Source: a virus
Length of the DNA stretch: 48,242 nt
Strand: one strand, 5' to 3'
IMG/VR virus record: IMGVR_UViG_3300045988_148808
Coordinates: 1 to 48,242 of that record
Below the pieces are notes generated by a model that did no database searches, had not been told where the DNA came from, and was given only the letters and a program-made list of their open reading frames with translations. Below, piece by piece: positions 1,016 through 37,253 of the stretch (positions are counted from its first letter, which is position 1; each line of letters begins with the position of its first letter). The position numbers and the translations under genes were made by a program.

Positions 1016-1734
1016 ATGACGCAAATCGCAAAGAGCTTTACCAGCTGTTGAAACTTGCCTATGCCGGCTACGGGAAAAGTGCTCCCGATCCGGAAACATT
1101 CAACGCATTCGTGCATTTCCTCCGGCCATTCCCGTTGACAAGCATCAAGGTGGCACTGGAGGAACACTGCGACCGGTCGGAATTCGTGCCGACTGCCGTA
1201 GCGCTGGCCAGGCGATGCAAAGAAATGGATGGGAGACCGACAGCAGATGAAGCGTGGGCAATCGCACTGAAAAGCGCAAATGAGTCCGAAACAGTAGTCT
1301 GGACAAGCGAAATTGCACAAGCGATGTTCGCCTGCAAATCAATTCTGGATACCGGCGACAACATCGGTGCACGCATGGCGTTTCGGGATGCCTACAACCG
1401 GCTGGTCGATGACGCCAGAGCACAGCTGATACTGGTGAAATGGGATGTGTCGCTGGGGACGGATGCCCAGCGTCGGGAAATTGCCATCCATAACGCGCAA
1501 CGAGCTGGGCAAATAGCCTGCGACAGCACGCTTTATCCTGCCTTACCGGGTGCCCCGTCCGAAGAAGCCAGACTCAGGATTGCCCAAAAAACAAAAGAAC
1601 TGTTGGAAAACCTGAAGTCCGGCAGCCTGATGCGATACAGCCGGTCGAAAGAAATCGAGCGAGACCGAGTTGAGACAGCCAGACGTAAAGCGGAAATCGC
1701 AAAGGCAGTCGATGAATACCGAAGGGGATCATGA
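1012..1734 (+). CDS. replication-associated protein, possible helicase loader (G39P-like N-terminal region)
   Basis: ATGA overlap with the initiator stop. The N-terminus KELYQLLKLAYAGYGKSAPDPETFNAFVHFLRPFPLTSIKVALEEH recalls the G39P-type loader pattern. No NTPase motif. Confidence 0.45.
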   Translation: MNDANRKELYQLLKLAYAGYGKSAPDPETFNAFVHFLRPFPLTSIKVALEEHCDRSEFVPTAVALARRCKEMDGRPTADEAWAIALKSANESETVVWTSEIAQAMFACKSILDTGDNIGARMAFRDAYNRLVDDARAQLILVKWDVSLGTDAQRREIAIHNAQRAGQIACDSTLYPALPGAPSEEARLRIAQKTKELLENLKSGSLMRYSRSKEIERDRVETARRKAEIAKAVDEYRRGS

Positions 1735-1801
1735 AACCGCGACCGAAGCAGGTTTACCGATCCTCGAGGTCGGACGGCTGAAAAAAATGGATTAATGCGC
1801 C

Positions 1802-2359
1802 ATGAAGAACAGAAGAAAAGAAATGCAGGAGACTAATAAAAAAACACGAGGTCGAGACGGCGAGACACGCCGGAACATTCTGGCTTTTTGCAGTCAGGAC
1901 GCAAAAACGGCACGTGAGATTATTGACGGACTCTCCCTTTCGAAGACGGTGGTGTACAAGATACTAAAAAACCTGAGGGAGAAAAAATGGATAACCGTTC
2001 TTGACAAAAAGATAGGCAATAAATCGTTATATCTCGCAAAGGGATATAAAGGCGCCCCTTCTTCCGTCGCTAAACCGAAAGAAAAGGCGGGAAAGAAAGA
2101 TAGCGTTTCTTTTTCGCAAAAAGTCTTGGACTTTATCAAAGTCAATCCGGGGGTAAGCGCGTGGGAGATCGCCAGCAAGTTTTCCGTCAGTAGTAAAAAG
2201 GCTTCAGGAAGCGCGGAGTACCTCTGCTTCCGAAACAGGATTAGGTTGGAGAAAAAAGACGGGATCTACTGCTATTTCCCGGTATCCCGCGACTCCATCC
2301 CGCTTAACTTTCGAATTTGGGACAACGCAATACGGCATGTAGTGAGGAGCGCGATATGA
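1802..2359 (+). CDS. winged-HTH (MarR/ArsR-like) DNA-binding protein
   Basis: ...RRNILAFCSQDAKTAREIIDGLSLSKTVVYKILKNLREKKWI...; a second wHTH-like segment lies near the C-terminus. Confidence 0.6.
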   Translation: MKNRRKEMQETNKKTRGRDGETRRNILAFCSQDAKTAREIIDGLSLSKTVVYKILKNLREKKWITVLDKKIGNKSLYLAKGYKGAPSSVAKPKEKAGKKDSVSFSQKVLDFIKVNPGVSAWEIASKFSVSSKKASGSAEYLCFRNRIRLEKKDGIYCYFPVSRDSIPLNFRIWDNAIRHVVRSAI

Positions 2360-2586
2360 CACAAAATGCATTGATCATCGACAACATCAAGGCGTTATAC
2401 GGGTTGGGAAAAGATATCGACGTGGCGCCTCTCCTTGGTGTGACTGCCTCGTCTGTTTCCCATATGAGGCGCGGAGATATTTCCTTTTCACCCCGGATGT
2501 TCCTGTTCTTGTGCATCGACAGGGACATGCGACCAAGCCAGATGTTTATGGAGCTTGGATTACCGCCAGATTATTTCGAAAAATGA
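2356..2586 (+). CDS. small HTH protein
   Basis: ATG 2356 overlaps the previous stop (ATGA). HTH-like segment ...DIDVAPLLGVTASSVSHMRRG... Confidence 0.55.
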   Translation: MTQNALIIDNIKALYGLGKDIDVAPLLGVTASSVSHMRRGDISFSPRMFLFLCIDRDMRPSQMFMELGLPPDYFEK

Positions 2587-2900
2587 ACTTCATAGAATCT
2601 TACTTTAACGCCATCCATAAGAAACTGGCCAATCACTTCGGCATCCCTATTGAGGAAGTACATTTTTACGGTGTTTCCTACCTGATGGATCGGTTGACAC
2701 CAGTCACACCGGCACGGATGAAATTCGATACATACCGTTGGACGCTGTTAGGAGACTGCCCAGTGTGCCATGCGCCAAGCAATCAGGAGCACACATACTG
2801 TTCAAACTGTGGCAGGCGACTGTTGTGGCCGAAGAAAAAAGACTGGGCGAAACACGGTATCAGCACTGATGAATACATCGACAGTCAGTATGAAGAATAA
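2583..2900 (+). CDS. zinc-ribbon protein
   Basis: ATG 2583 overlaps the previous stop. CPVCHAPSNQEHTYCSNCG forms a CxxC...CxxC motif. Confidence 0.55.
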   Translation: MNFIESYFNAIHKKLANHFGIPIEEVHFYGVSYLMDRLTPVTPARMKFDTYRWTLLGDCPVCHAPSNQEHTYCSNCGRRLLWPKKKDWAKHGISTDEYIDSQYEE

Positions 2901-2950
2901 GCTGCTCAAATAAAAAACAAGGGCTTTATTGAGATATGAAAGGATAAAAC

Positions 2951-3310
2951 ATGGGAACCGAGAAAACAGCGTTATTGAATGCCCTAGAGGAGTATGAACG
3001 GGAAAAGAAAAAATACGGGGTAACGTCTGCTCAGGCGATGAAGTGGATGGGAACGATGCTGGCACTTGTACCGGAAGAGCTGAAAGAAAAAATCGTTGAC
3101 GCCGGTATTCGGCAAGGAGTGCTACCCAAACCGGATGGTTATCTGGCAGACGGAACACCGGTATATAGCTCCAGATTGATTGAAGATTTCTTCGGGGTGT
3201 CCCGGGATGAGATTAACTACCGGCTACAGGTACTTAACGAGGCGAGACAGTCTGTCGGCAAAGAACCATTGTCGTTCCTGGACGATACTCTCGTCCACAA
3301 AGTGCATTAG
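2951..3310 (+). CDS. hypothetical protein
   Basis: Clean ORF in operon orientation; an AAAGGA element lies about 9 nt upstream. No motif recognised. Confidence 0.55.
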   Translation: MGTEKTALLNALEEYEREKKKYGVTSAQAMKWMGTMLALVPEELKEKIVDAGIRQGVLPKPDGYLADGTPVYSSRLIEDFFGVSRDEINYRLQVLNEARQSVGKEPLSFLDDTLVHKVH

Positions 3311-3318
3311 GGGTAAAT

Positions 3319-3735
3319 ATGACCTGTATCCGATTTTCCGTTCCCGGCGCCCCAGTCGCAAAAGCCCGTCCGCGTTTCACGAAAAACGGACACGCCTACA
3401 CGCCCGATAAAACGCGCTCATACGAAGCGATCGTCAAGCTGTGTGCCATGAAAGCCATGAAGGGCAAAAAGCTGCTCACGGGCGCGATTTCGCTTTCCGT
3501 GACGGCGTTTTTCCCGATACCGAAATCCTGCACAAAGTCGGTCAGGGCAAAAGCATTGTCCGGTGAATTCAGGCATACAAAAAAGCCGGACTGGGACAAC
3601 GTCGGCAAGGTTGTATCGGACGCCTTGAATGGTGTGGTTTACGCTGACGATGCGAAGGTATCGCATGCGACTGTCGATAAGCGATATTCCGACTTTCCGC
3701 GGGTAGAAGTGTTGGTTGAATGCGAAAACGCGTGA
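3319..3735 (+). CDS. rusA: RusA-family Holliday junction resolvase
   Basis: FSVPGAPVAKARPRFTKNGHAYTP...KPDWDNVGKVVSDALNGVVYADDAKV is the classic RusA signature. Confidence 0.9.
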   Translation: MTCIRFSVPGAPVAKARPRFTKNGHAYTPDKTRSYEAIVKLCAMKAMKGKKLLTGAISLSVTAFFPIPKSCTKSVRAKALSGEFRHTKKPDWDNVGKVVSDALNGVVYADDAKVSHATVDKRYSDFPRVEVLVECENA

Positions 3736-5263: not shown

Positions 5264-5470
5264 GCACCGGAAAAAGACGGTGTCGGGTTTGACAGCCCGA
5301 ATCTCACAGGCGGACAGCCGCTAGCCAAGCGGTATTTTTTTGTCCGTTGCATGGCTTCGTCTATGGGCAAGCCATGTGGGAAGCCGCAAGGCTTGCCGGT
5401 ATCCTGTGAGCCGGTCTGTCAACCCGCATGGTTTCGCCCACCCTTTTGACAGGGGGTAGGCGATTGATTC
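5264..5470 (+). ncRNA. structured RNA / long structured leader upstream of the KilA-N gene
   Basis: Closing helix 5285-5295/5416-5425 plus 5304-5310/5403-5409 encloses three hairpins (5311-5346, 5350-5376, 5381-5394 with a GCAA loop). An internal hairpin plus T7 is terminator-like. Confidence 0.5.
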
Positions 5471-9985: not shown

Positions 9986-10058
9986 GCCTTGTTTCCATTT
10001 CTCTATGACATGTAATTATTATACATAAATATGTATTAAAATGCAAGAGTAAAATAGT

Positions 10059-10430
10059 ATGTCAAAAGAAGATTTAAAACCCGTTCGAAGCAAAGACGAA
10101 GCAAAGGAAAGAGGCAAAAAAGGCGGCATTGCTTCCGGTGAAGCAAGGCGTAGGAAAAAGACAATCCGTGAAACGCTGGAAATGATGCTGGCCGGCCAAA
10201 TGCCGGATGGAGCGACAAGACGGGATGCTATTGTGACAGCACTCCTTGAAAAAGCGTTGTCCGGCGATGTACGCGCATTTGAGGCAATCCGGGACAGTGT
10301 CGGCGAAAAGCCAACAGAAAAAATGAACGTATCCACAGCAGGCGGTGTGGTGTTCCCGACAAGCATTTTATTGGTGGCAGGTGAGCCAGGCAAAAATACA
10401 GATACCCCCGAAGCTGATAGCGGTGTTTGA
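10059..10430 (+). CDS. putative terminase small subunit
   Basis: Lies directly upstream of and overlapping TerL. Basic N-terminus ...GKKGGIASGEARRRKKTIRETLE...GDVRAFEAIRDSVGEKP. Called by position and pattern. Confidence 0.5.
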   Translation: MSKEDLKPVRSKDEAKERGKKGGIASGEARRRKKTIRETLEMMLAGQMPDGATRRDAIVTALLEKALSGDVRAFEAIRDSVGEKPTEKMNVSTAGGVVFPTSILLVAGEPGKNTDTPEADSGV

Positions 10431-11604: not shown

Positions 11605-13067
11605 TGCGAAAAACGTTGAAAAAACCTTCCTATCGGCCCTTAAACATTTCGAATTATCTGTTTGAAGACGACAGCATTGACGGAATCATCGACTGGCGCG
11701 AAAAACTGAAACCGGCGGAAACCCTCGGGAAACCCGATAAAGATGCACAAATGGCAAACGACGAAGCCTGTGCTTACGCGTGGGGGCTATTGTCTCACTC
11801 GCTGGAACTCGGCCAAATGCCAACGACCGCATCGTTTCTGGGCTATCCGGCATTGCAGGACATCGCCCAGAACGGACTGATACGCGCATGCGTTGAAACG
11901 GTTGCGGACGACATGACCCGCGATTTCGGAAAAATCAAGAGCGAAGAACCTGACAAGGCGGAGATTGTTGTTGCGATGAACAACGCGCTTGAGCAATTCC
12001 ACATCCGGGATGTCTTGCATGAGGTTGCAGAAAAAGTTGGCTATTTCGGCGGGTGTCTGGTTTACATAGATACAGGCGCAAATGATGCGGAATTGCAAAC
12101 CCCGCTCAACATGGGCGAATACAGCAATGAATTGCGCAATCTCAAAGCATTCCGGGTAATTGACCCTATCAATGTGTATCCGGGAGCCTACAACAGTGCG
12201 GAACCTTTGAAAGCGGATTTTTTCAGGCCGGATCACTGGTATGTCATGGGCAAGCGCGTCCACGCATCAAGGCTGATTCGCTTTGTTGCCAACGAAGTGC
12301 CACAGCTATTGAAGCCGGTTTACAACTTCTTCGGTATCGCACAAGCCCAACTGCTTTGGGACTATGTGATGCATTTTTCGGAGTGCCGTGTCGCCACCGC
12401 GAACATCGCCAAGAAATACAGCATGACCGTTTTCAAGACGAACATGTCTGCCACGCTGATGGACGGCGCCGGAACGGACCAGATCAACAATCGTATCCGG
12501 TTGATCGCCCGTTATCAGGACAACAACAGCATAACGGCGATAGATAAGGACAACGAAGACATCGTCAAGATCGAAACGCCGATTGGCGGGTTGACTGATA
12601 TCACCAAACAGGGACTTGAGTTTCTTGCAGCGCTCAATCGCACACCTGCCGTTAAATTGCTGGGTATATCCCCTTCCGGCTTCAATGCCACAGGGGAAAG
12701 CGATCTGCGGAATTACAACGACCATATTTCCAGTCAGCAGGAAAAAGTTTTCGGACACGGTCTGAAAACCATCATCGATTGCATCCATGTTTTTCTTTTC
12801 GGAAAAACAAACAAGGGGCTGATATTCGAATGGGCAGAGCTCGGCGAAGAAGATCAGGCCGCCATGGCGAACACCCAGAAAGTAAAAGCCGACACGATGG
12901 CGGTTTTGTTGGATCGAAGCGTTATCAGCCCGGAAGAAGCGCGTCAGGCTGTCGCATCCGATCCTGACAACCCACTGTCATTTATTGACCCCGCGGACGT
13001 CCCTGAAGGCGAGCCTGTGGATTTCGGCGATCTGGATGACGCGGACAAAGCCGGTGAAATCTACTGA
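11604..13067 (+). CDS. portal protein (DUF1073-type)
   Basis: 487 aa, immediately after TerL with a start/stop overlap. Sequence pattern recalls DUF1073 portals. Confidence 0.8.
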   Translation: MRKTLKKPSYRPLNISNYLFEDDSIDGIIDWREKLKPAETLGKPDKDAQMANDEACAYAWGLLSHSLELGQMPTTASFLGYPALQDIAQNGLIRACVETVADDMTRDFGKIKSEEPDKAEIVVAMNNALEQFHIRDVLHEVAEKVGYFGGCLVYIDTGANDAELQTPLNMGEYSNELRNLKAFRVIDPINVYPGAYNSAEPLKADFFRPDHWYVMGKRVHASRLIRFVANEVPQLLKPVYNFFGIAQAQLLWDYVMHFSECRVATANIAKKYSMTVFKTNMSATLMDGAGTDQINNRIRLIARYQDNNSITAIDKDNEDIVKIETPIGGLTDITKQGLEFLAALNRTPAVKLLGISPSGFNATGESDLRNYNDHISSQQEKVFGHGLKTIIDCIHVFLFGKTNKGLIFEWAELGEEDQAAMANTQKVKADTMAVLLDRSVISPEEARQAVASDPDNPLSFIDPADVPEGEPVDFGDLDDADKAGEIY

Positions 13068-13849
13068 TGAAAAAAAAGAAGCGAGCGAAGGTCTTGCGTC
13101 CCATACTGCCGAATGCGGGAAACAGGGCGTGGTACCGCAAGAAAATCCTCACATTGAACGAGGAGATGCAACGGTCGGTATCGTGGTGGCTCATGTCGGA
13201 ATTACGCAAGAACGGCAGCGCGGCAGACTTGAATCGCACGATGGAAGAGCTGACACGACGCTGGCAAGACCGATATGAGGAAGAAGCCGCAAGCATCGCC
13301 GAAGCGTTTGTAAAACGCGTCAATACCAGCACAGTGAAGTCCATGGAACAGGCCTTCGTTTCCGTTGGATTTGATATCAAATTGCGAAACACACGCGAGG
13401 TGAACAATATCCTCAATTCGTTGCGATATACCCAGGTTGACCTGATCCGCAGCATTCCAGCACGAGAACTGGATGCAGTATCTGGCATCGTGCAACGCGG
13501 AGTGCAAGCAGGTAGAGACATCGCCTATATACAGGACGAACTGAAAAAACGCTTTGCCGTAACGAACAACAGAGCACGAACCATCGCCATAGACCAGAGC
13601 AACAAGGCGACACAGGCTATCCGTGAGGCACACGATCTGGCGGCCGGCATTACCGAGGGAATTTGGGATCACGTGCCGGGACGCAAGACATCACGACCGA
13701 CCCACGTTGCCATGAACGGAAAACGTTTCAAGCTGTATGGGCCTGACAGGGGGCTGTACGACAGTGCGGTAGGAAGAACAGTCATGCCCGGGGAATTGAT
13801 TTTGTGCGCCTGTGGATATAGAGCGGTGCTTCCTGAATTTTTCAGGTGA
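13067..13849 (+). CDS. head morphogenesis protein (MuF / SPP1 gp7 family)
   Basis: ...[20 protein letters not shown]...[22 protein letters not shown] is a MuF-type motif. Sits after the portal. Confidence 0.85.
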
Positions 13850-14397
13850 TAAACATGATTATTCAAGACGCGGACAAGTGGATTACAGTAAAGCCGAATG
13901 GGGCGGAAAACAAAGGAGCGCACGTCAAGATCGACGGGGAGACCGGCGAGGTGAAAGCCGGAATGGGCGGAAAGTTCACAGGGCAGCGCATTTCTGAAGT
14001 TCGCAAAGACTTTACAGGTCCCAAAACACCAAGGGGGTTTCAAAGGCAAAAACCTGATCACAAGACGTACCAACAAAATCGAACGGCAGAAAGCGGAATA
14101 AAACGAGATGATCAGGGGCGTCCTGTTGCGCCGAAACGCCCTGTCCTCGTGTCAAACGGATACTGGAACGGCAAGTTCTATTCGAACAACAGGGTTTTCG
14201 TTGACGGCAAGCAAGTCAAATTGACGAATGAAGAAGCAGAGGCTCTCAAGAAATGGCAGAAGGAATACGCCCGATTCAAGGAAGAGCGGAAAGAGGACAC
14301 GAAAATCGCGCCGAAAGCCTATCTGAACGTCAAATATGAGGACAGGAACGCGGCGAAGCAAGCCGGCGCCAAATGGGATCCTGATGCTAAAAAATAG
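13846..14397 (+). CDS. protein with a polyvalent-protein-style linker motif and a DUF5710-like C-terminus cut by TAG
   Basis: [35 protein letters not shown]...; C-terminus [28 protein letters not shown]. Same frame as 14422..16464. Confidence 0.6.
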
Positions 14398-14421
14398 TTT
14401 TGGGACAAGCGAAGCGGCGAA

Positions 14422-16464
14422 ATGCCTGAAGCATTGAACCGGTTCTATGGAATACCTCAATCAGCGCCAAAAGCAGAAAGAGTCATTACACAGAAAACAG
14501 AAACAGCGAAACCATCATCCATGACTGACCGCGAACTCGCCGCACAAGCCAAACGATATGACAACACGTTCAACGAAGGTGGTGAAGGATACAACCCGTA
14601 TCGTGTTGAACAAGAAAAGAGAAGCTGGGGTGCGTTACGGCGTTCCAGTACAGAAAGTGCCTTGAAGTCTTTTCCTGAAATGTATCTGGACAATCTTCCG
14701 GGAGCGCGTCAGTTTAATGAAGCGATGAAGCAAGGGAATATCGCTAAAGCGGATGAAGTGCTTGCCTCCAATCCGGCTCTTGCGAATTACGCCAAATGGT
14801 CGAGCGCTGGAGCAGAAACGGCTTACGGCATGAATCAGCGTAATGCCGCCAGAATGCTTAGAAACGGGAGCAGCTATGAAGAAGCAAGGCAGATTGCCGA
14901 GAAATCCGCCTATAACTGGGACAATTCCATGGGAACAACATTGACCTTTGATGCGGCGAGCAAGCGTCGCTTTGATGAAAACGGCTTCATGCACGTTGAA
15001 TCAAGCCATATCACCAAAGAGCAAGTGGTACCGTATCGCGGGCGAGAAATACCAGGCTGGCAAGAGCGTGGTCTCGATCCGGACAAGATTTATTTCGGTT
15101 ACCGACCGTCGGAAGAACTGCAAAAAGCGGTGGACACCTTCAACGGCTTGCCGATCATGCTGATGCATCACACGGTATCCGCCGACGATCCGAAGAAGGA
15201 GTATCAGGTCGGTTCCATGGCGACAAACGCGGTTTGGAACGCGCCATACGTCGACAACGGAATGATTTTTACGGATTCTGTTGGCATTGAGGCCGTCAAA
15301 AACGGTACGTGCAGGGAAATCAGCTGCGCATATCAGTATGACCCGGATTTCACGCCGGGTGTTTTCGATGATACGCCGTATGACTTCGTGATGCGGAATA
15401 TCAGGGGCAATCATGTTGCCATCGTGGAAGAGGGACGTGCAGGCCCGGATGTGGTCGTGGCAGATTCTTCCGAAAACTTGAAACCAAAAGGAGTAAAACA
15501 GCTTATGAGTATTCTCAAAGACTTCTTCCGCGGTGCACAAGACAGTGACCCGGGCATCGAAGCCGCGGAAGTCAATGCAGCACAAACCATTTTGGATTTG
15601 CACAAACGCGATCCCATTACCGGGGAAATTGTGGACATTACGACAGACGAGGATAAAAACGCCAAGATTCAGGAATTGATCAACCAATTTTCCGAAGTGC
15701 TGTCTCCGGAAGATTTGAAGAAATTTGAAGATAGCCTTACCGATCTCGCTTATTCCAAAGCAACTGGTGAAAGCGAAATTGCCCGGAAAATGGACGGGGA
15801 AGATGACGGGCTGAACACCGCCGAGGCCTACGCTTATGGCGAAAAGAAAGAACGCGAGCGCGAAGAACGGGAGGAAATGCGCGGTGGCAGGGATGCGACT
15901 CCCTTGAATACAGCGGAAGCTGTGGCCGCAGGTGAACGTCACGAGCGAGAAAAACTCATGCGCGAACACATGCGCGAACGGGCAGAAGATGCCTTGAAAA
16001 AATGCGGCATGGATGCCGAGCCGGATGCCGTGAAAGAAGCTTTCGCCAAAGGGTTCGCTTGGGGAATGCATGATGGCGAAAAGGACATGCGCAATCGCGC
16101 CGAACGCGAAAAACTGGATCGGGAACATGAACGGGAAGCGATGGAAAAACGCTATGCGGCGGATTCCGCAGCCCTGATAAAGAAAGTCGAACGATCCATT
16201 GCGGCCAAATTCGAGGCGGCAAGAGAGGTGGAAACCGCTATTGGAGCAGTTCGCCCGCTGGCCTTCGATAGTGCCGACGCTATTTATGGTTACGCACTTG
16301 CACAGATGGGACGATCAGGCGTCAACAAAGCGGCGGCTCGCGAAGTGTTCCGAGCCATTGTGGACACGCACAGACAAACGATGGCAATGGACGCAACCCC
16401 CTATCAGGACCGGAAATATACCGGAGAGTTCGCGGGATTGAAAAATCTTAAAATCGAAAGGTAA
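14422..16464 (+). CDS. prohead protease/scaffold protein (DUF2213-type core, E/R-rich coiled-coil C-terminus)
   Basis: ...RRFDENGFMHVESSHITKEQVVPYRGREI...GNHVAIVEEGRAGPDVVVADS matches the DUF2213 pattern. No SD in front of ATG 14422. Confidence 0.7.
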   Translation: MPEALNRFYGIPQSAPKAERVITQKTETAKPSSMTDRELAAQAKRYDNTFNEGGEGYNPYRVEQEKRSWGALRRSSTESALKSFPEMYLDNLPGARQFNEAMKQGNIAKADEVLASNPALANYAKWSSAGAETAYGMNQRNAARMLRNGSSYEEARQIAEKSAYNWDNSMGTTLTFDAASKRRFDENGFMHVESSHITKEQVVPYRGREIPGWQERGLDPDKIYFGYRPSEELQKAVDTFNGLPIMLMHHTVSADDPKKEYQVGSMATNAVWNAPYVDNGMIFTDSVGIEAVKNGTCREISCAYQYDPDFTPGVFDDTPYDFVMRNIRGNHVAIVEEGRAGPDVVVADSSENLKPKGVKQLMSILKDFFRGAQDSDPGIEAAEVNAAQTILDLHKRDPITGEIVDITTDEDKNAKIQELINQFSEVLSPEDLKKFEDSLTDLAYSKATGESEIARKMDGEDDGLNTAEAYAYGEKKEREREEREEMRGGRDATPLNTAEAVAAGERHEREKLMREHMRERAEDALKKCGMDAEPDAVKEAFAKGFAWGMHDGEKDMRNRAEREKLDREHEREAMEKRYAADSAALIKKVERSIAAKFEAAREVETAIGAVRPLAFDSADAIYGYALAQMGRSGVNKAAAREVFRAIVDTHRQTMAMDATPYQDRKYTGEFAGLKNLKIER

Positions 16465-33657: not shown

Positions 33658-33926
33658 ATTACATAACGCCAGAGCTTCTTATCGGCATAATTTCCGGGCT
33701 TGTTGTCTGTGTTGCGACAATGTTCTGGTTTTTCTTCCGGCGCTTGTACAAGCTGATTGACGGGTTGCGTGGATGCGTTGATCGGATGAAAGACCGTCTG
33801 GAAGAACGCATCCGTACAAATGATGAACGTCACGACGACTTGCACAATAAATTCGACGCGCTCCAAAAAGAGCTGTACGAGCTGAAATGCTACGTCTATT
33901 CGCAGCACGGGGGTATAAATGAATAA
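33654..33926 (+). CDS. putative holin (single TMD plus coiled-coil tail)
   Basis: MNYITPELLIGIISGLVVCVATMFWFFF then a charged helix. Start/stop overlaps with both neighbours; sits directly upstream of the endolysin. Confidence 0.55.
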   Translation: MNYITPELLIGIISGLVVCVATMFWFFFRRLYKLIDGLRGCVDRMKDRLEERIRTNDERHDDLHNKFDALQKELYELKCYVYSQHGGINE

Positions 33927-34383
33927 GACGCGCATTACTGTGGCGGCGCTGGCTGTGTCGGCAGCCGCGCTTGTGGGTATCGCCACGCACGAAGGTTATC
34001 GCGGCGAAGCGTACAAGGATGCGACCGGTATTCCCACCATCGGCTACGGCGAAACCGCAGGCGTGAAGATGGGCGACAAGACCACACCGGAACGAGCGCT
34101 TGTGCAACTGCTGGAAAGTACGGAAAAACACGCCGACGCTATCCGAAGCTGTATCAAGGTGCCGCTGTATCAACATGAGTTCGATGCCTACGTCAGCCTA
34201 TCCTATCAGATAGGTGCTGGTGCTTTTTGCAGGTCAACACTAATCAAAAAGCTCAACAAAGGCGATTACACAGGGGCGTGTAACGAGCTTGATAAATGGG
34301 TATATGCTGGCGGCAAAAAACTTCCTGGAATTGTAAAAAGACGTCAAAAAGAAAAAGAAATGTGTCTCGGAATAAAAAAATAA
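33919..34383 (+). CDS. endolysin, GH24 lysozyme with an N-terminal SAR-like anchor
   Basis: ITVAALAVSAAALVGIATHEGYRGEAYKDATGIPTIGYGET is a T4-lysozyme-type catalytic motif behind a weakly hydrophobic N-terminus. Confidence 0.9.
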   Translation: MNKTRITVAALAVSAAALVGIATHEGYRGEAYKDATGIPTIGYGETAGVKMGDKTTPERALVQLLESTEKHADAIRSCIKVPLYQHEFDAYVSLSYQIGAGAFCRSTLIKKLNKGDYTGACNELDKWVYAGGKKLPGIVKRRQKEKEMCLGIKK

Positions 34384-34427
34384 TGTAATATTGTCGCGTT
34401 AGTCAGTTATAAAACATATGTGATTTT

Positions 34428-35111
34428 ATGCCAGTATGCAGATATTGTGGGACGAATTTTGAAGGTCCGTACAGAATGAAATATTGTTCTCTAAAATGTC
34501 GCATTTTAAGAAGAACACATGTCAAAGGAGAAAACGAATGTTGGGAGTGGAATGGCGGTAAAACAAAAGCAGGATATGGTGTGTTGAATATCTGTAACAA
34601 AATAGTATTAGCGCACAGAATATCATATGAGGCATTTTTCGGAGAAATACATGAAGGGATTTTTGTTTGTCATCGTTGCGACAACCCGTCATGCGTAAAC
34701 CCTAAACATCTATTTGTCGGAACGAACGCTGACAACATGCGCGATATGGCGGAGAAAGGCAGAGCGGCATGGAAAAATCGAGAAATGCCAAAAGAGGTAA
34801 GGGAAAAAATAGCGGCTACAAGAAAAGCGAGTGGATGGAAGCCTAGCAGAGAACAGATACAGGCATCTATTGAGGCACGGAGAAAGCTTTTATCAGACCC
34901 AGTTAAAAAGAACGAAATATATTCAAAAATTCGTGGTGAAAAGAACCCGAATTATGGGCCAATGACAGACGAGAAACGCGCAAGATACAAAAAATATTGG
35001 GAATCTCAAAAAGGAAAAAAGCGCGGTCCAATGAGTGAAGAAACAAAGCTAAAAATAAAAGCAGCTCATTTGCGAAGGTCAATATGTTCCGGAAAATTAC
35101 CAACAAATTAA
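34428..35111 (+). CDS. HNH homing endonuclease (HNH_3 with NUMOD-like repeats)
   Basis: ...ECWEWNGGKTKAGYGV...LAHRISYEAFFGEI...VCHRCDNPSCVNPKHLFVGTNADNMRD plus three G-x-K-x-S/T-EE/EQ repeats. Visibly A+T-rich. Confidence 0.9.
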   Translation: MPVCRYCGTNFEGPYRMKYCSLKCRILRRTHVKGENECWEWNGGKTKAGYGVLNICNKIVLAHRISYEAFFGEIHEGIFVCHRCDNPSCVNPKHLFVGTNADNMRDMAEKGRAAWKNREMPKEVREKIAATRKASGWKPSREQIQASIEARRKLLSDPVKKNEIYSKIRGEKNPNYGPMTDEKRARYKKYWESQKGKKRGPMSEETKLKIKAAHLRRSICSGKLPTN

Positions 35112-35225
35112 ACAAGCCGGCGCATGCGCGGAAATCAGGCGCTGGAACCGTGCAGGCGGCAAGGTATTGCCTGGACTGGTCAAGCGGCGTGAAGCGGAAT
35201 ACAAAATGTGCAAGGGGGAGTCTAA

Positions 35226-35420
35226 ATGACGAGAGACGAATTGCCGGAAGAAAAACGAACGCGCTGCGAAGTCTGGACGCGGGTGATGGGATACCACCGT
35301 CCGGTCCACAATTTCAACGCAGGTAAGCAGTCGGAGTTCCGTGAACGTAAATGTTTCAGGGAACCGGTAAGCGGGGGACAAATTGTCCCCGGGAACCGCT
35401 TACAGATTGTAAGCAGATGA
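35226..35420 (+). CDS. mini-ORF resembling the C-terminal glycyl-radical tail of NrdD
   Basis: GGGGGAG SD. ...CEVWTRVMGYHRPVHNFNAGKQSEFRERKCF compares with my recollection of E. coli NrdD ...RRVCGYLGSPDARPFNAGKQEEVKRRV. Confidence 0.6.
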   Translation: MTRDELPEEKRTRCEVWTRVMGYHRPVHNFNAGKQSEFRERKCFREPVSGGQIVPGNRLQIVSR

Positions 35421-35427
35421 ATTTGAT

Positions 35428-35452
35428 AACTATTCGGAAATTCCGAATAGTT
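35428..35452. repeat. 25-bp perfect palindrome (12-bp arms)
   Basis: AACTATTCGGAA-A-TTCCGAATAGTT. A third half-site TTCCGAATA lies at 35476-35484. TTGATAAC direct repeats flank it at 35423 and 35454. Confidence 0.9.
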
Positions 35453-35524
35453 GTTGATAACCAGTTATTTGGTTTTTCCGAATAACTAGTGATCCAAGAT
35501 TTTGGATCAAACTTGGAGCAAAGG

Positions 35525-35977
35525 ATGCATCAAAAATTGCTTGTCGGAATTGCTGGCCTGATTGTCGGACTGACTGCCGGGTGGTTTGCAAACGGCTGGC
35601 GGCTCAATGCGCAAATCGAAGCGACAGCCGCCGAGCACGCGCAAGCGCTCCAGCGTGCCGAGCAGGAAGCCAGATCAAAAGAGCAGGAATGGCAATCTAC
35701 TCACAATAAACTGCAAGCAAAATACGAGAAGGAAAAGAAAAATGCTGAATCCAAAATCGCTGATCTGCGCCTCCGCGTGCGCTCTGGTACTGTGCGCCTG
35801 TCAGTCCCCGCCCGTGGCTGTGCAGTGCCCGGAAATCCCGGAGCTGCAACTGGAAAAACGCGAGCCGAACTTGACGGAAAGACTGCTGACGATCTTATCT
35901 CTATCGCAGCCGACGGAGACGCAGCAATCCGGGAGCTGAATCTGTGTATTGATCAGTACAAAAGTGTTTCGCCATAA
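35525..35977 (+). CDS. Rz: i-spanin (Rz-like)
   Basis: N-terminal TM LLVGIAGLIVGLTAGWF, coiled-coil body, embedded lipoprotein ORF in the +1 frame. GGAG SD before ATG 35525. Confidence 0.8.
   Translation: MHQKLLVGIAGLIVGLTAGWFANGWRLNAQIEATAAEHAQALQRAEQEARSKEQEWQSTHNKLQAKYEKEKKNAESKIADLRLRVRSGTVRLSVPARGCAVPGNPGAATGKTRAELDGKTADDLISIAADGDAAIRELNLCIDQYKSVSP
35742..35939 (+). CDS. Rz1: o-spanin (Rz1-like lipoprotein) embedded in Rz
   Basis: MLNPKSLICASACALVLCAC-QSPP has a lipobox, followed by a Pro-rich short mature part. Lies entirely within the Rz ORF. Confidence 0.8.
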   Translation: MLNPKSLICASACALVLCACQSPPVAVQCPEIPELQLEKREPNLTERLLTILSLSQPTETQQSGS

Positions 35978-36198
35978 AAAATAATAGCTAGTATTTATCA
36001 GGTGTTTGAGCTGATTGTTTTTTGTGCATGGCGAAACGAAAATTTAACTAACCTATTGATTTTAAATAATTTATAAACTGCCTTCTAAGCCGTAGGTCAG
36101 TGGTTCGAATCCACTAGGGCAGGCCATTAAAATCAATCACTTATCATCATTCCCGACTTTCTTTGCATCTTCATGGCGAAACACCTGTTTCGCCATAA
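35965..36198. promoter_or_regulatory. attP region: tRNA-like core flanked by arm-type repeats
   Basis: ATGGCGAAAC or its complement at 35966-35975, 36028-36037, 36173-36182 and 36187-36196. The 13-mer TGTTTCGCCATAA is at 35965 and 36186. Confidence 0.6.
36077..36126 (+). other. 3' half of a tRNA-Arg(TCT)-like sequence (attP core), not a complete tRNA gene
   Basis: Anticodon loop CTTCTAA, variable loop AGGTC, T-arm AGTGG-TTCGAAT-CCACT, acceptor 3' strand AGGGCAG, then G-CCA. No D-arm or 5' acceptor upstream. Confidence 0.75.
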
Positions 36199-37253
36199 CC
36201 GGTTTTACCGTCTTGCCTTTTTGCTGTCGTATGTAGATTTCCGTCGTTCTGGTATTGGTGTGCCCCAGCAGGTTGGATGCCTCGACGATGCCGTAAATGT
36301 CCCTTATGTCTGTTGCCGCTTTGGCGCGTAAATCGCGGAACTGAAAACGCTGGAAGGGTATTCCTCGTTCTTCGGCTTCTTGTTGCGCAGCATCTCTTGC
36401 TTTATTGAAGTGGTAGCGGAAATATCCGTCATTGTTCAGCATGTGTCCGGCCGGATCCGCCAATATCAACATACTGACCACACCACGTTTTTTGATCCTG
36501 TCCAGGACATTCGCCAGTTCTCCAGTTATTTCTATTCTCAGCTTTTCTCCGGTCTTGTTTTGGGTAATTTCCAGATATCCGTTTTTGATGTTATCCCAAC
36601 GCAATTTTTTGACATCTGTCGGTCTTTGACCAGTCAGATAGGCAATATCCAGGGCATCGCGTAATACATCTTTCGAGTGTTTATAAACGAGTGCCAGTTC
36701 TTCATCTGATACATATATTTTTCGTTTTTCGTCCACTTTCATTTGACGTGTCAATCCTGTAACCGGGTTGATTACTGTCATGTATCCTCTTGCAATCGCC
36801 CAGTTGCAAAAAAAGAAATTTGATTTCTTTTTTTGCACTGGCTTTGGATGACCGACGATAATAATAAGGCATGATTTGTGCTGGCCGGATATCATCAATA
36901 TCCATTGGACCATACACCGGAGCAAGAAATCGCCAATATGTTTTCCTGTCTTTAATGGTTCGATCCGACAGTCCGGATTCTTTTCTGTTTTCAGCCCAAA
37001 CCATGTATTTCTCGAAGACAGCCTGAAAAGAGTTTTCTGTCACGACGGGGTGATGTTCTTGTCCTTCCAGTTCTGCCCATCTTATTTTCGCTTTGGGAAG
37101 GTCGCTGCCCAAAGCGATGGTTTTGCGTTTCCCGTTTTTGTCGCGAGGGAGTTCGTAAAAATAGTAGCGTTTTTCGTCTCCTCGTTTGTTTTTACGGATA
37201 CGCACGACCATGTGCTGTGGCAAATCAAGATGTTTTTTCTTGATGGCTATCAT
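36137..37253 (-). pseudogene. int: tyrosine integrase interrupted by a 1-nt frameshift
   Basis: N-part ORF 36702..37253 (arm-binding-type N-terminus) and C-part ORF 36137..36925 (LTGQRPTDV...LLGHTNTRTTEIYIR) overlap in different frames. A7/T7 runs lie at 36808-36834. Confidence 0.85.

Follow-up and report, generated by a model that had tools for sequence, protein, structure and literature searches.

What is a 64-codon gene resembling the glycyl-radical end of an anaerobic ribonucleotide reductase (RNR) doing by itself in a phage genome? In class III RNR, the activase NrdG makes a Cα radical on a C-terminal glycine of NrdD, the radical loop lies inside the barrel beside the thiyl cysteine, and O2 cuts the chain at the radical glycine. 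The gene in question occupies positions 35226–35420 (+) of the window, by which we mean the whole 48,242-nucleotide stretch analysed here (IMG/VR record IMGVR_UViG_3300045988_148808), the genome of a temperate phage. The original prediction offered two readings, a spare-part radical domain comparable to GrcA/YfiD, or a dead nrd exon carried along by the neighbouring HNH endonuclease. We arrive at a third: we hold it fairly probable, from comparative genomics, that the phage has in 35226–35420 a functional gene for a detachable subunit, the one that bears the glycyl radical in a two-piece class III RNR.

A stand-alone NrdD tail gene

The open reading frame, correctly delimited by the original prediction, runs from ATG to TGA over 64 codons and encodes MTRDELPEEKRTRCEVWTRVMGYHRPVHNFNAGKQSEFRERKCFREPVSGGQIVPGNRLQIVSR. 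The strong Shine–Dalgarno-like GGGGGAG described for it is present at 35212–35218 (+), 7 nt before the ATG, and the sequence immediately before the gene shows no sigma-70-like promoter. The proposed likeness to the glycyl-radical C-terminus of NrdD, for which a profile search had been advised, is borne out by Pfam NRDD (PF13597), which matches the tail protein with E = 1.7e-8 and a score of 34.1 bits, above its gathering cut-off of 26.2. Tail residues 12–44 align with profile positions 532–562 of 562 only, namely the glycyl-radical loop, and the NCBIfam NrdD models TIGR02487 and NF006358 are likewise matched by the tail over their last ~32 positions only (E ~1e-7). The NCBIfam search returned no dedicated small-protein model for the tail, and the top phage-family match was PHROG 4132, of 'unknown function'. 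Pfam Gly_radical (PF01228), to which proteins of the GrcA/YfiD type belong, did not match; a scan at E <= 1 gave NRDD alone.

Within the protein, residues 11–46 (RTRCEVWTRVMGYHRPVHNFNAGKQSEFRERKCFRE; 35256–35363, +) form the conserved core, which holds the invariant residues of the family and evolves with a median dN/dS of 0.21. The predicted radical-bearing glycine of the RVMGY motif is Gly22, encoded at 35289–35291 (+): in a family profile it is aligned to the radical glycine of RIVGY in Thermotoga maritima NrdD (PDB 4coi/4u3e), a weak match with E = 0.4, and a PDB sequence search with the single tail protein as query gave no matches. RVMGY is separated from FNAGKQ by six residues (HRPVHN), not by the eight first reported. 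The strict PROSITE glycine-radical pattern has Cys, Ser or Ala before the glycine, and the Met of RVMGY would not fit it. The C-terminal extension, residues 47–64 (35364–35420, +), is poorly conserved and overlaps an RNA/DNA hairpin at 35362–35408 (inverted repeat I5); the relatives P0007 and P0017 stop 7–10 residues past the core. AlphaFold2, given the 64-aa peptide alone and a 29-sequence alignment, returned a low-confidence, uninformative model (pLDDT 64, pTM 0.28).

The tail belongs to a large family of small proteins. A search among 5.8 billion proteins recovered 2246 relatives, the best 120 of which are all 48–108 aa long, and a profile search of 1.84 billion cluster representatives (50% identity) gave 4799 clusters at E <= 1e-3, with lengths of 53–113 aa in 149 of the best 150. 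The sole long match, P0467 (988 aa), was discarded as an unrelated repeat protein with ten chance 'GRCEVWTR' motifs. The family core is almost invariant, R-x-x-CEVWTRVMGYHRPV-x-x-FN-x-GK-x-x-E-x-x-x-R-x-x-F-x-E, and an identical set of invariant residues (R11, C14, E15, W17, R19, V20, M21, G22, Y23, R25, P26, N31, G33, K34, E37 and R41) was found in phage tails (61 distinct sequences) and in chromosomal tails (75 distinct sequences), the invariance of C14, W17, R19, G22 and Y23 being built in by the core-extraction pattern, which itself demanded them. Membership can be stated as a separate ORF of ~50–70 aa with the core R-x-x-C-E-V/I-W-T-R-V-M-G-Y-H-R-P-V-x-x-F/W-N-x-G-K-x-x-E-x-x-x-R-x-x-F-x-E; the window protein conforms to it and has all invariant family residues. 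Its gene lies between the endolysin/HNH region and Rz instead of in the canonical slot between a GRD-less nrdD body and nrdG. As the original prediction had noted, neither of these partners accompanies it: for class III, tblastn of the window with clade-matched NrdD body and NrdG queries was empty at E <= 1e-3. The window tail is an orphan member of the two-piece NrdD tail family.

Two-piece class III RNR in bacteria

Cellular members of the family, which RefSeq labels 'anaerobic ribonucleoside-triphosphate reductase', are encoded beside the rest of the enzyme. In a Lamellibrachia symbiont (locus L002), the small gene has nrdG on one side and on the other an nrdD of 682 aa, and this NrdD ends just past the Zn-ribbon (...CPKHGY...CPSCDDE...), without an RVxGY motif. 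Scanning one genome per species, we found a tail relative in at least 594 genomes, and we classified 81 chromosomal loci, namely the best 80 of these at least 594 species genomes together with L002. A separate tail ORF directly follows the body in 73 of the 81, with nrdG downstream in all but two (L027, where the contig ends, and L031, which gave no match). The typical order is an NrdD body of ~685 aa that ends after the Zn-ribbon, a separate tail of ~60 aa, and then nrdG. Five loci have a fused NrdD (L014, L025, L030, L032 and L062), and three gave no body match (L008, a prophage; L061, at a contig edge; and L071, unexplained). Two-piece genera include Pseudomonas/Stutzerimonas, Halomonas, Thiobacillus, Chromobacterium, Vogesella, Ralstonia, Achromobacter and Oxalobacter, and sulfur-oxidising symbionts are also represented.

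Body and tail are complementary on the NRDD profile. The bodies of Oxalobacter, the Lamellibrachia symbiont and phage L093 cover positions 2 to 528–531, the tails cover 531/532–562, and the fused relatives L014 and L025 cover 2–562 in a single chain. A programmed frameshift or readthrough that would fuse the two pieces is ruled out by their geometry: relative to the body, the tail lies in frame 0, +1 or +2 in 25, 32 and 16 of the 73 split loci, the spacing between the two varies from -53 to +166 nt, and every tail has its own ATG. Recoding is also countered by a 22-nt spacer with a Shine–Dalgarno sequence in O. aliiformigenes, and by the tail of L093, which lies 2.7 kb upstream of its body. 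With tails in all three frames, at variable spacing and behind their own ATG, we are therefore dealing with a genuine two-gene enzyme that has no conserved recoding site. Gene order thus indicates that class III RNR in hundreds of bacterial species is encoded as an NrdD body, a separate tail gene and nrdG.

In many of the GRD-less bodies (loci L004–L083), two adjacent cysteines stand close to the C-terminal end, a few residues away from it (...AACCD, ...QQCCGA, ...ACCT).

Phage copies of the tail

Tail relatives are encoded in at least 428 viral contigs of IMG/VR. Of these at least 428 viral loci we retrieved 80. In every one the frame stays open across the matched region for 51 codons or more, and nrdG is missing from all of them. 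Extraction of the radical-loop motif succeeded for 77 of the 80; L095, L108 and L148 did not conform to the search pattern. Phage tails are under purifying selection, as cellular tails are: the median dN/dS is 0.21 for phage tails (70 unique 38-codon cores) versus 0.20 for chromosomal tails, and a comparison of the tails of the window and of its relative L084 shows 2 non-synonymous against 11 synonymous changes. A survey for orthologous phage mini-ORFs combined with a selection test, as proposed alongside the original prediction, has yielded many relatives, and ones that are constrained.

One phage encodes both pieces. Viral contig L093 (and also L094) has a GRD-less class III RNR body of 801 aa, interrupted by an intein, 2.7 kb from the tail. 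In L093, the body is found at 12862–15267, with the mini-intein (Intein_splicing/PT-HINT) in the barrel, and the tail gene at 9998–10150; no nrdG was found within the 20 kb examined. Such a layout is direct genomic evidence that the pieces are made separately and have to meet in trans.

The genes around phage tails vary. In a survey of 67 non-redundant phage loci upstream and 59 downstream, the upstream neighbour was an endolysin in 12 of 67 and an HNH gene in 4 of 67, and the downstream neighbour an Rz-like spanin in 9 of 59. Other neighbours are replication initiators, DNA polymerase, terminase, integrases and, in five cases, a radical-SAM/SPASM maturase-like gene. Immediately before the tail, one clade of viral contigs encodes a ~432-aa radical-SAM/SPASM protein, PapB- or SCIFF-like (L109, 8223–9524; L116, 4986–6281; also L111 and L146). 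We considered these neighbours as a phage-encoded activase and rejected the idea, for they are SPASM peptide-maturase-like and not NrdG.

Among GenBank phages, megablast of the locus gave no matches, and with the peptide as tblastn query the sole matches were two full-length NrdDs, in ANMV-1 and MT835493. The second record, from a human-gut phage (MT835493.1, L165), is unannotated and encodes at 1024–3432 a one-piece 802-aa NrdD with a C-terminal redoxin-like domain; a thioredoxin-reductase-like gene comes after it.

A likely Oxalobacter host

The window has ~50% GC and shares 70–82% DNA identity in patches with Oxalobacter prophages. Because of this patchy identity and GC content, we regard Oxalobacter as the likely host of the phage, with O. 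aliiformigenes as the likely species. Among the matches listed, P0007 is the nearest named relative of the window tail, with 94% identity across 73% of the query; it is encoded after a lysozyme gene in an O. aliiformigenes prophage. That prophage resides on the same chromosome, CP098247.1, as a split NrdD: the body, which has 687 aa and ends ...CPKHGYLAGEHEFCPICDEELMVQMEKQTH, comprises ATP-cone, barrel and Zn-ribbon but no radical loop, and behind it come a 22-nt spacer that contains AAAGGA, the 60-aa tail with the RVMGY glycine, and nrdG. In a second O. aliiformigenes prophage, a lysozyme gene is followed by the tail and then by Rz. The Oxalobacter MAG at locus L043 has the same arrangement of body, tail and nrdG, and its activase scores as NrdG2.

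Compared with the chromosomal tail of O. aliiformigenes, the window tail is ~68% identical in the core and 52% overall, so that about 12 of 38 core positions differ between the phage and host chromosomal versions. As the two tails are only ~68% identical in the core, compatibility of the phage tail with the host body is an assumption in what follows.

The lysis cassette and its HNH insertion

The tail gene stands at the end of a rearranged endolysin locus. The endolysin gene (33919–34383, +; 154 aa; Pfam Phage_lysozyme, E = 2e-43) has a replacement 3′ end, and an HNH homing endonuclease gene (34428–35111, +; 227 aa; Pfam HNH_3, E = 8e-12, with a weak NUMOD3 match) sits in its 3′ part. Beyond the latter, 38 codons and a stop at 35113–35229 (+) are an orphaned endolysin 3′ end, recognised by its identity to the C-terminus of the L084 endolysin. 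This segment (35113–35226) is 88% identical to the C-terminus of that HNH-free homologue, versus 57% to the C-terminus of the window's own endolysin. The HNH gene is absent from L084, L001 and L003; from the endolysin remnant and these HNH-free relatives, we therefore conclude that the HNH cassette entered the endolysin gene together with a replacement 3′ end. Its copies in L085–L087 are 97–100% identical amid more diverged flanking genes, which suggests that the cassette (34384–35229) spread recently. Homologues of the tail occupy the same locus without an HNH gene in L001, L003, L008, L084 and L088–L090, and the comparison indicates that the tail gene predates the HNH insertion here. The TGA of the orphaned endolysin end overlaps the tail-gene ATG (ATGA), and the tail gene is apparently translationally coupled to the gene upstream.

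Downstream, an Rz-like spanin is encoded at 35489–35977 (+; PHROG 2466, E = 3.5e-32), with an Rz1-like lipoprotein ORF (MLNPKSLICASACALVLCACQ...) embedded in it at about 35742–35939 (+), whose putative lipobox was read by eye. The spacer between the tail gene and Rz (35423–35488, +) is strongly structured, with a perfect 12-bp palindrome, AACTATTCGGAA/TTCCGAATAGTT, at 35428–35452, a terminator-like hairpin at 35443–35472 followed by a T-run, and an extra TTCCGAATA copy at 35476–35484. From 35345 to 35500, the 3′ end of the tail gene and the spacer form a chain of strong hairpins (MFE -57.9 kcal/mol, z = -6.9). The sequence is conserved in L084, and a role as terminator, processing site or operator is possible. 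In Oxalobacter-type phages, the tail always lies between the endolysin and Rz/Rz1 genes. A conserved ORF of ~82 aa (MSKIKELRT.YEYTGLFCGCVP.Y.NFDG...GWKISKIRKNKHFTGEAK) also occurs between endolysin and tail in L001 (7741–8004), L084, L086 and L087, and is absent from the window.

Several other features of the phage were noted. Rfam C4 antisense RNA (RF01695), the P1/P7-type immunity antisense RNA, is matched over its full length at 5359–5445 (+) with 65.4 bits against a gathering score of 45. An integrase-like gene at 36137–37253 (-) consists of two overlapping ORFs (36137–36925 and 36702–37253), a split that may reflect a frameshift, a pseudogene or a sequencing error. Adjoining it, at about 36080–36135, is a fragment like the 3′ end of a tRNA (...GGTTCGAATCCACTAGGGCAGGCCA), probably the attP core; ARAGORN found no complete tRNA in the window. 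The fragment is flanked by ATGGCGAAAC/GTTTCGCCAT repeats (35966–35984, 36019–36037 and 36173–36196), which may be integrase arm sites.

Proposed function of the phage tail

In the reading that we favour, the phage tail would be made with the lysis-cassette genes or from the prophage, and host NrdG would take the Cα hydrogen from its Gly22. The radical-bearing tail would then dock in the host NrdD body, as an extra or a replacement radical cartridge, and restore or raise anaerobic dNTP synthesis, either for phage replication or for recovery of the lysogen after O2. Because O2 destroys the glycyl-radical part by backbone cleavage at the glycine, the tail would be a cheap consumable, and the phage would supply neither the 77-kDa body nor the activase. 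Counting against this reading is the place of the tail gene in a late lysis cassette, which is late for nucleotide supply.

The apparently late expression would also suit a decoy or dominant-negative peptide, one that binds the host NrdD body or NrdG without catalysis and thereby shuts down or retunes host anaerobic dNTP synthesis, for example in superinfection exclusion or host takeover. That the phage brings neither body nor activase, and that about 12 of 38 core positions depart from the host chromosomal tail, are both in keeping with such a role. We nevertheless consider it unlikely, because conservation of the radical glycine and the residues around it is just what cellular tails show. 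A decoy would need its binding residues but could do without the radical glycine and those next to it, yet every phage copy retains RVMGY, NxGK, E37 and R41, as cellular tails do (the presence of Gly22 in every extracted core is not independent evidence, since the pattern required GY), and dN/dS is the same in both groups. Moreover, the phage has no RNR of its own as far as the clade-matched search extends and presumably depends on host dNTP synthesis, and in L093 a phage encodes a body of its own along with such a tail.

A GrcA-type repair part, which would rescue an O2-cleaved one-piece NrdD much as GrcA and T4 Y06I do for pyruvate formate-lyase, strikes us as quite unlikely. The spare-part reading of the original prediction stands in so far as the phage does encode a stand-alone radical-loop piece, for which T4 Y06I is a precedent (PMC13450708), and fused NrdDs with the same motif do exist in 5 of the 81 related chromosomal loci. 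Its parallel with GrcA fits less well: the likely host genus has a two-piece NrdD, with no cleaved stump to displace and no one-piece enzyme in need of repair, and the peptide, homologous to the small subunit that such enzymes naturally have, falls outside the GrcA family, with no Pfam Gly_radical match.

A role linked to lysis or otherwise outside RNR, such as an O2 or redox input to lysis timing or service as the substrate of another radical-SAM enzyme, we regard as very unlikely. The position between endolysin and Rz/Rz1 in Oxalobacter-type phages, together with the endolysins and spanins that adjoin a minority of the surveyed phage tails, speaks for such a role, as does the radical-SAM/SPASM peptide-maturase-like gene upstream of the tail in one viral clade. 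However, other phages place the tail beside a replication initiator, DNA polymerase, terminase or integrase, and its sequence constraints are indistinguishable from those of cellular RNR tails. Position by itself carries little weight, since morons of lambdoid phages are commonly found at the border of the lysis cassette.

Finally, the original reading as a decaying nrdD fragment carried by the HNH gene, to which its adjacency and the frequent use of nrd genes as homing sites lent some appeal, can be dismissed as exceedingly improbable: the ORF is neither truncated nor HNH-bound but intact in all 80 retrieved viral loci and under purifying selection over 70 unique phage sequences, the same locus is occupied in HNH-free relatives, a clade-matched search of the window uncovered no remnant of an NrdD body, and it was the endolysin gene that the HNH cassette split, the true exon remnant being the endolysin 3′ end at 35113–35229.

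Relation to known systems and implications

The loop of the phage tail is homologous to that of the one-piece NrdDs of phage T4, E. coli, T. maritima and P. copri (R-V/I-x-G-Y ... N-x-G-K ... E ... R), and cellular tails, like those enzymes, have an NrdG-type activase beside them. Unlike in the one-piece enzymes, the loop here is a separate polypeptide of ~60 aa, the Zn-ribbon is left on the body, and the phage encodes the loop alone. As a small autonomous radical-loop protein of a large glycyl-radical enzyme, the tail resembles GrcA/YfiD of E. coli and Y06I of T4. GrcA and Y06I are activated by the activase of the parent enzyme and act in trans, and a phage-encoded version thus already exists (PMC13450708). 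The tail differs from GrcA in matching Pfam NRDD and not Gly_radical, and whereas GrcA replaces the cleaved part of a one-piece enzyme, the phage tail duplicates a normal subunit of a two-piece enzyme. According to a June 2026 review, spare parts are known for the formate lyases only, others being 'yet to be determined' (PMC13450708). A split RNR of another class is also on record, the class II NrdJa/NrdJb of Pseudomonas aeruginosa, in which a C-terminal functional module resides on a second polypeptide (PMC9669993). That class differs in being adenosylcobalamin-dependent, and the part split off carries Zn-finger and IscU-like domains in place of the radical site; phages with just the small NrdJ piece are not reported there (PMC9669993).

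A functional analogy can be drawn with psbA (D1) of cyanophages, although the protein and pathway are unrelated, and by that analogy the tail may serve a comparable role. In the cyanophage case, whose function is experimentally supported, the virus supplies a damage-prone, fast-turnover subunit of a host complex, which is thereby kept working while infection proceeds.

Our literature search found no description of a split NrdD or of an NrdD spare part, which is no proof that they are undescribed; as far as we found, split NrdD exists in database annotation and not in the literature. We see roughly equal chances for and against the full proposition, that class III RNR in many bacteria is a two-subunit enzyme with its radical on an exchangeable ~60-aa peptide, that hundreds of phages carry this peptide alone, and that, beyond the formate lyases, it would be the first glycyl-radical protein of the spare-part kind, by which phages resupply an O2-labile cartridge.

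The tail is in any case a concrete, testable candidate spare part for class III RNR, and it draws attention to the two-piece build that an essential anaerobic enzyme has in many bacteria, which seems to have been overlooked. For annotation, this means that a tail can easily escape notice while its body is labelled a complete RNR. If the reading is true, a free peptide substrate would explain how NrdG gains access to a glycine that is buried in one-piece enzymes, and only a 7-kDa piece would be sacrificed to O2. The phage gene would then be a minimal auxiliary gene that raises the dNTP supply of its host under anoxia in a gut anaerobe.
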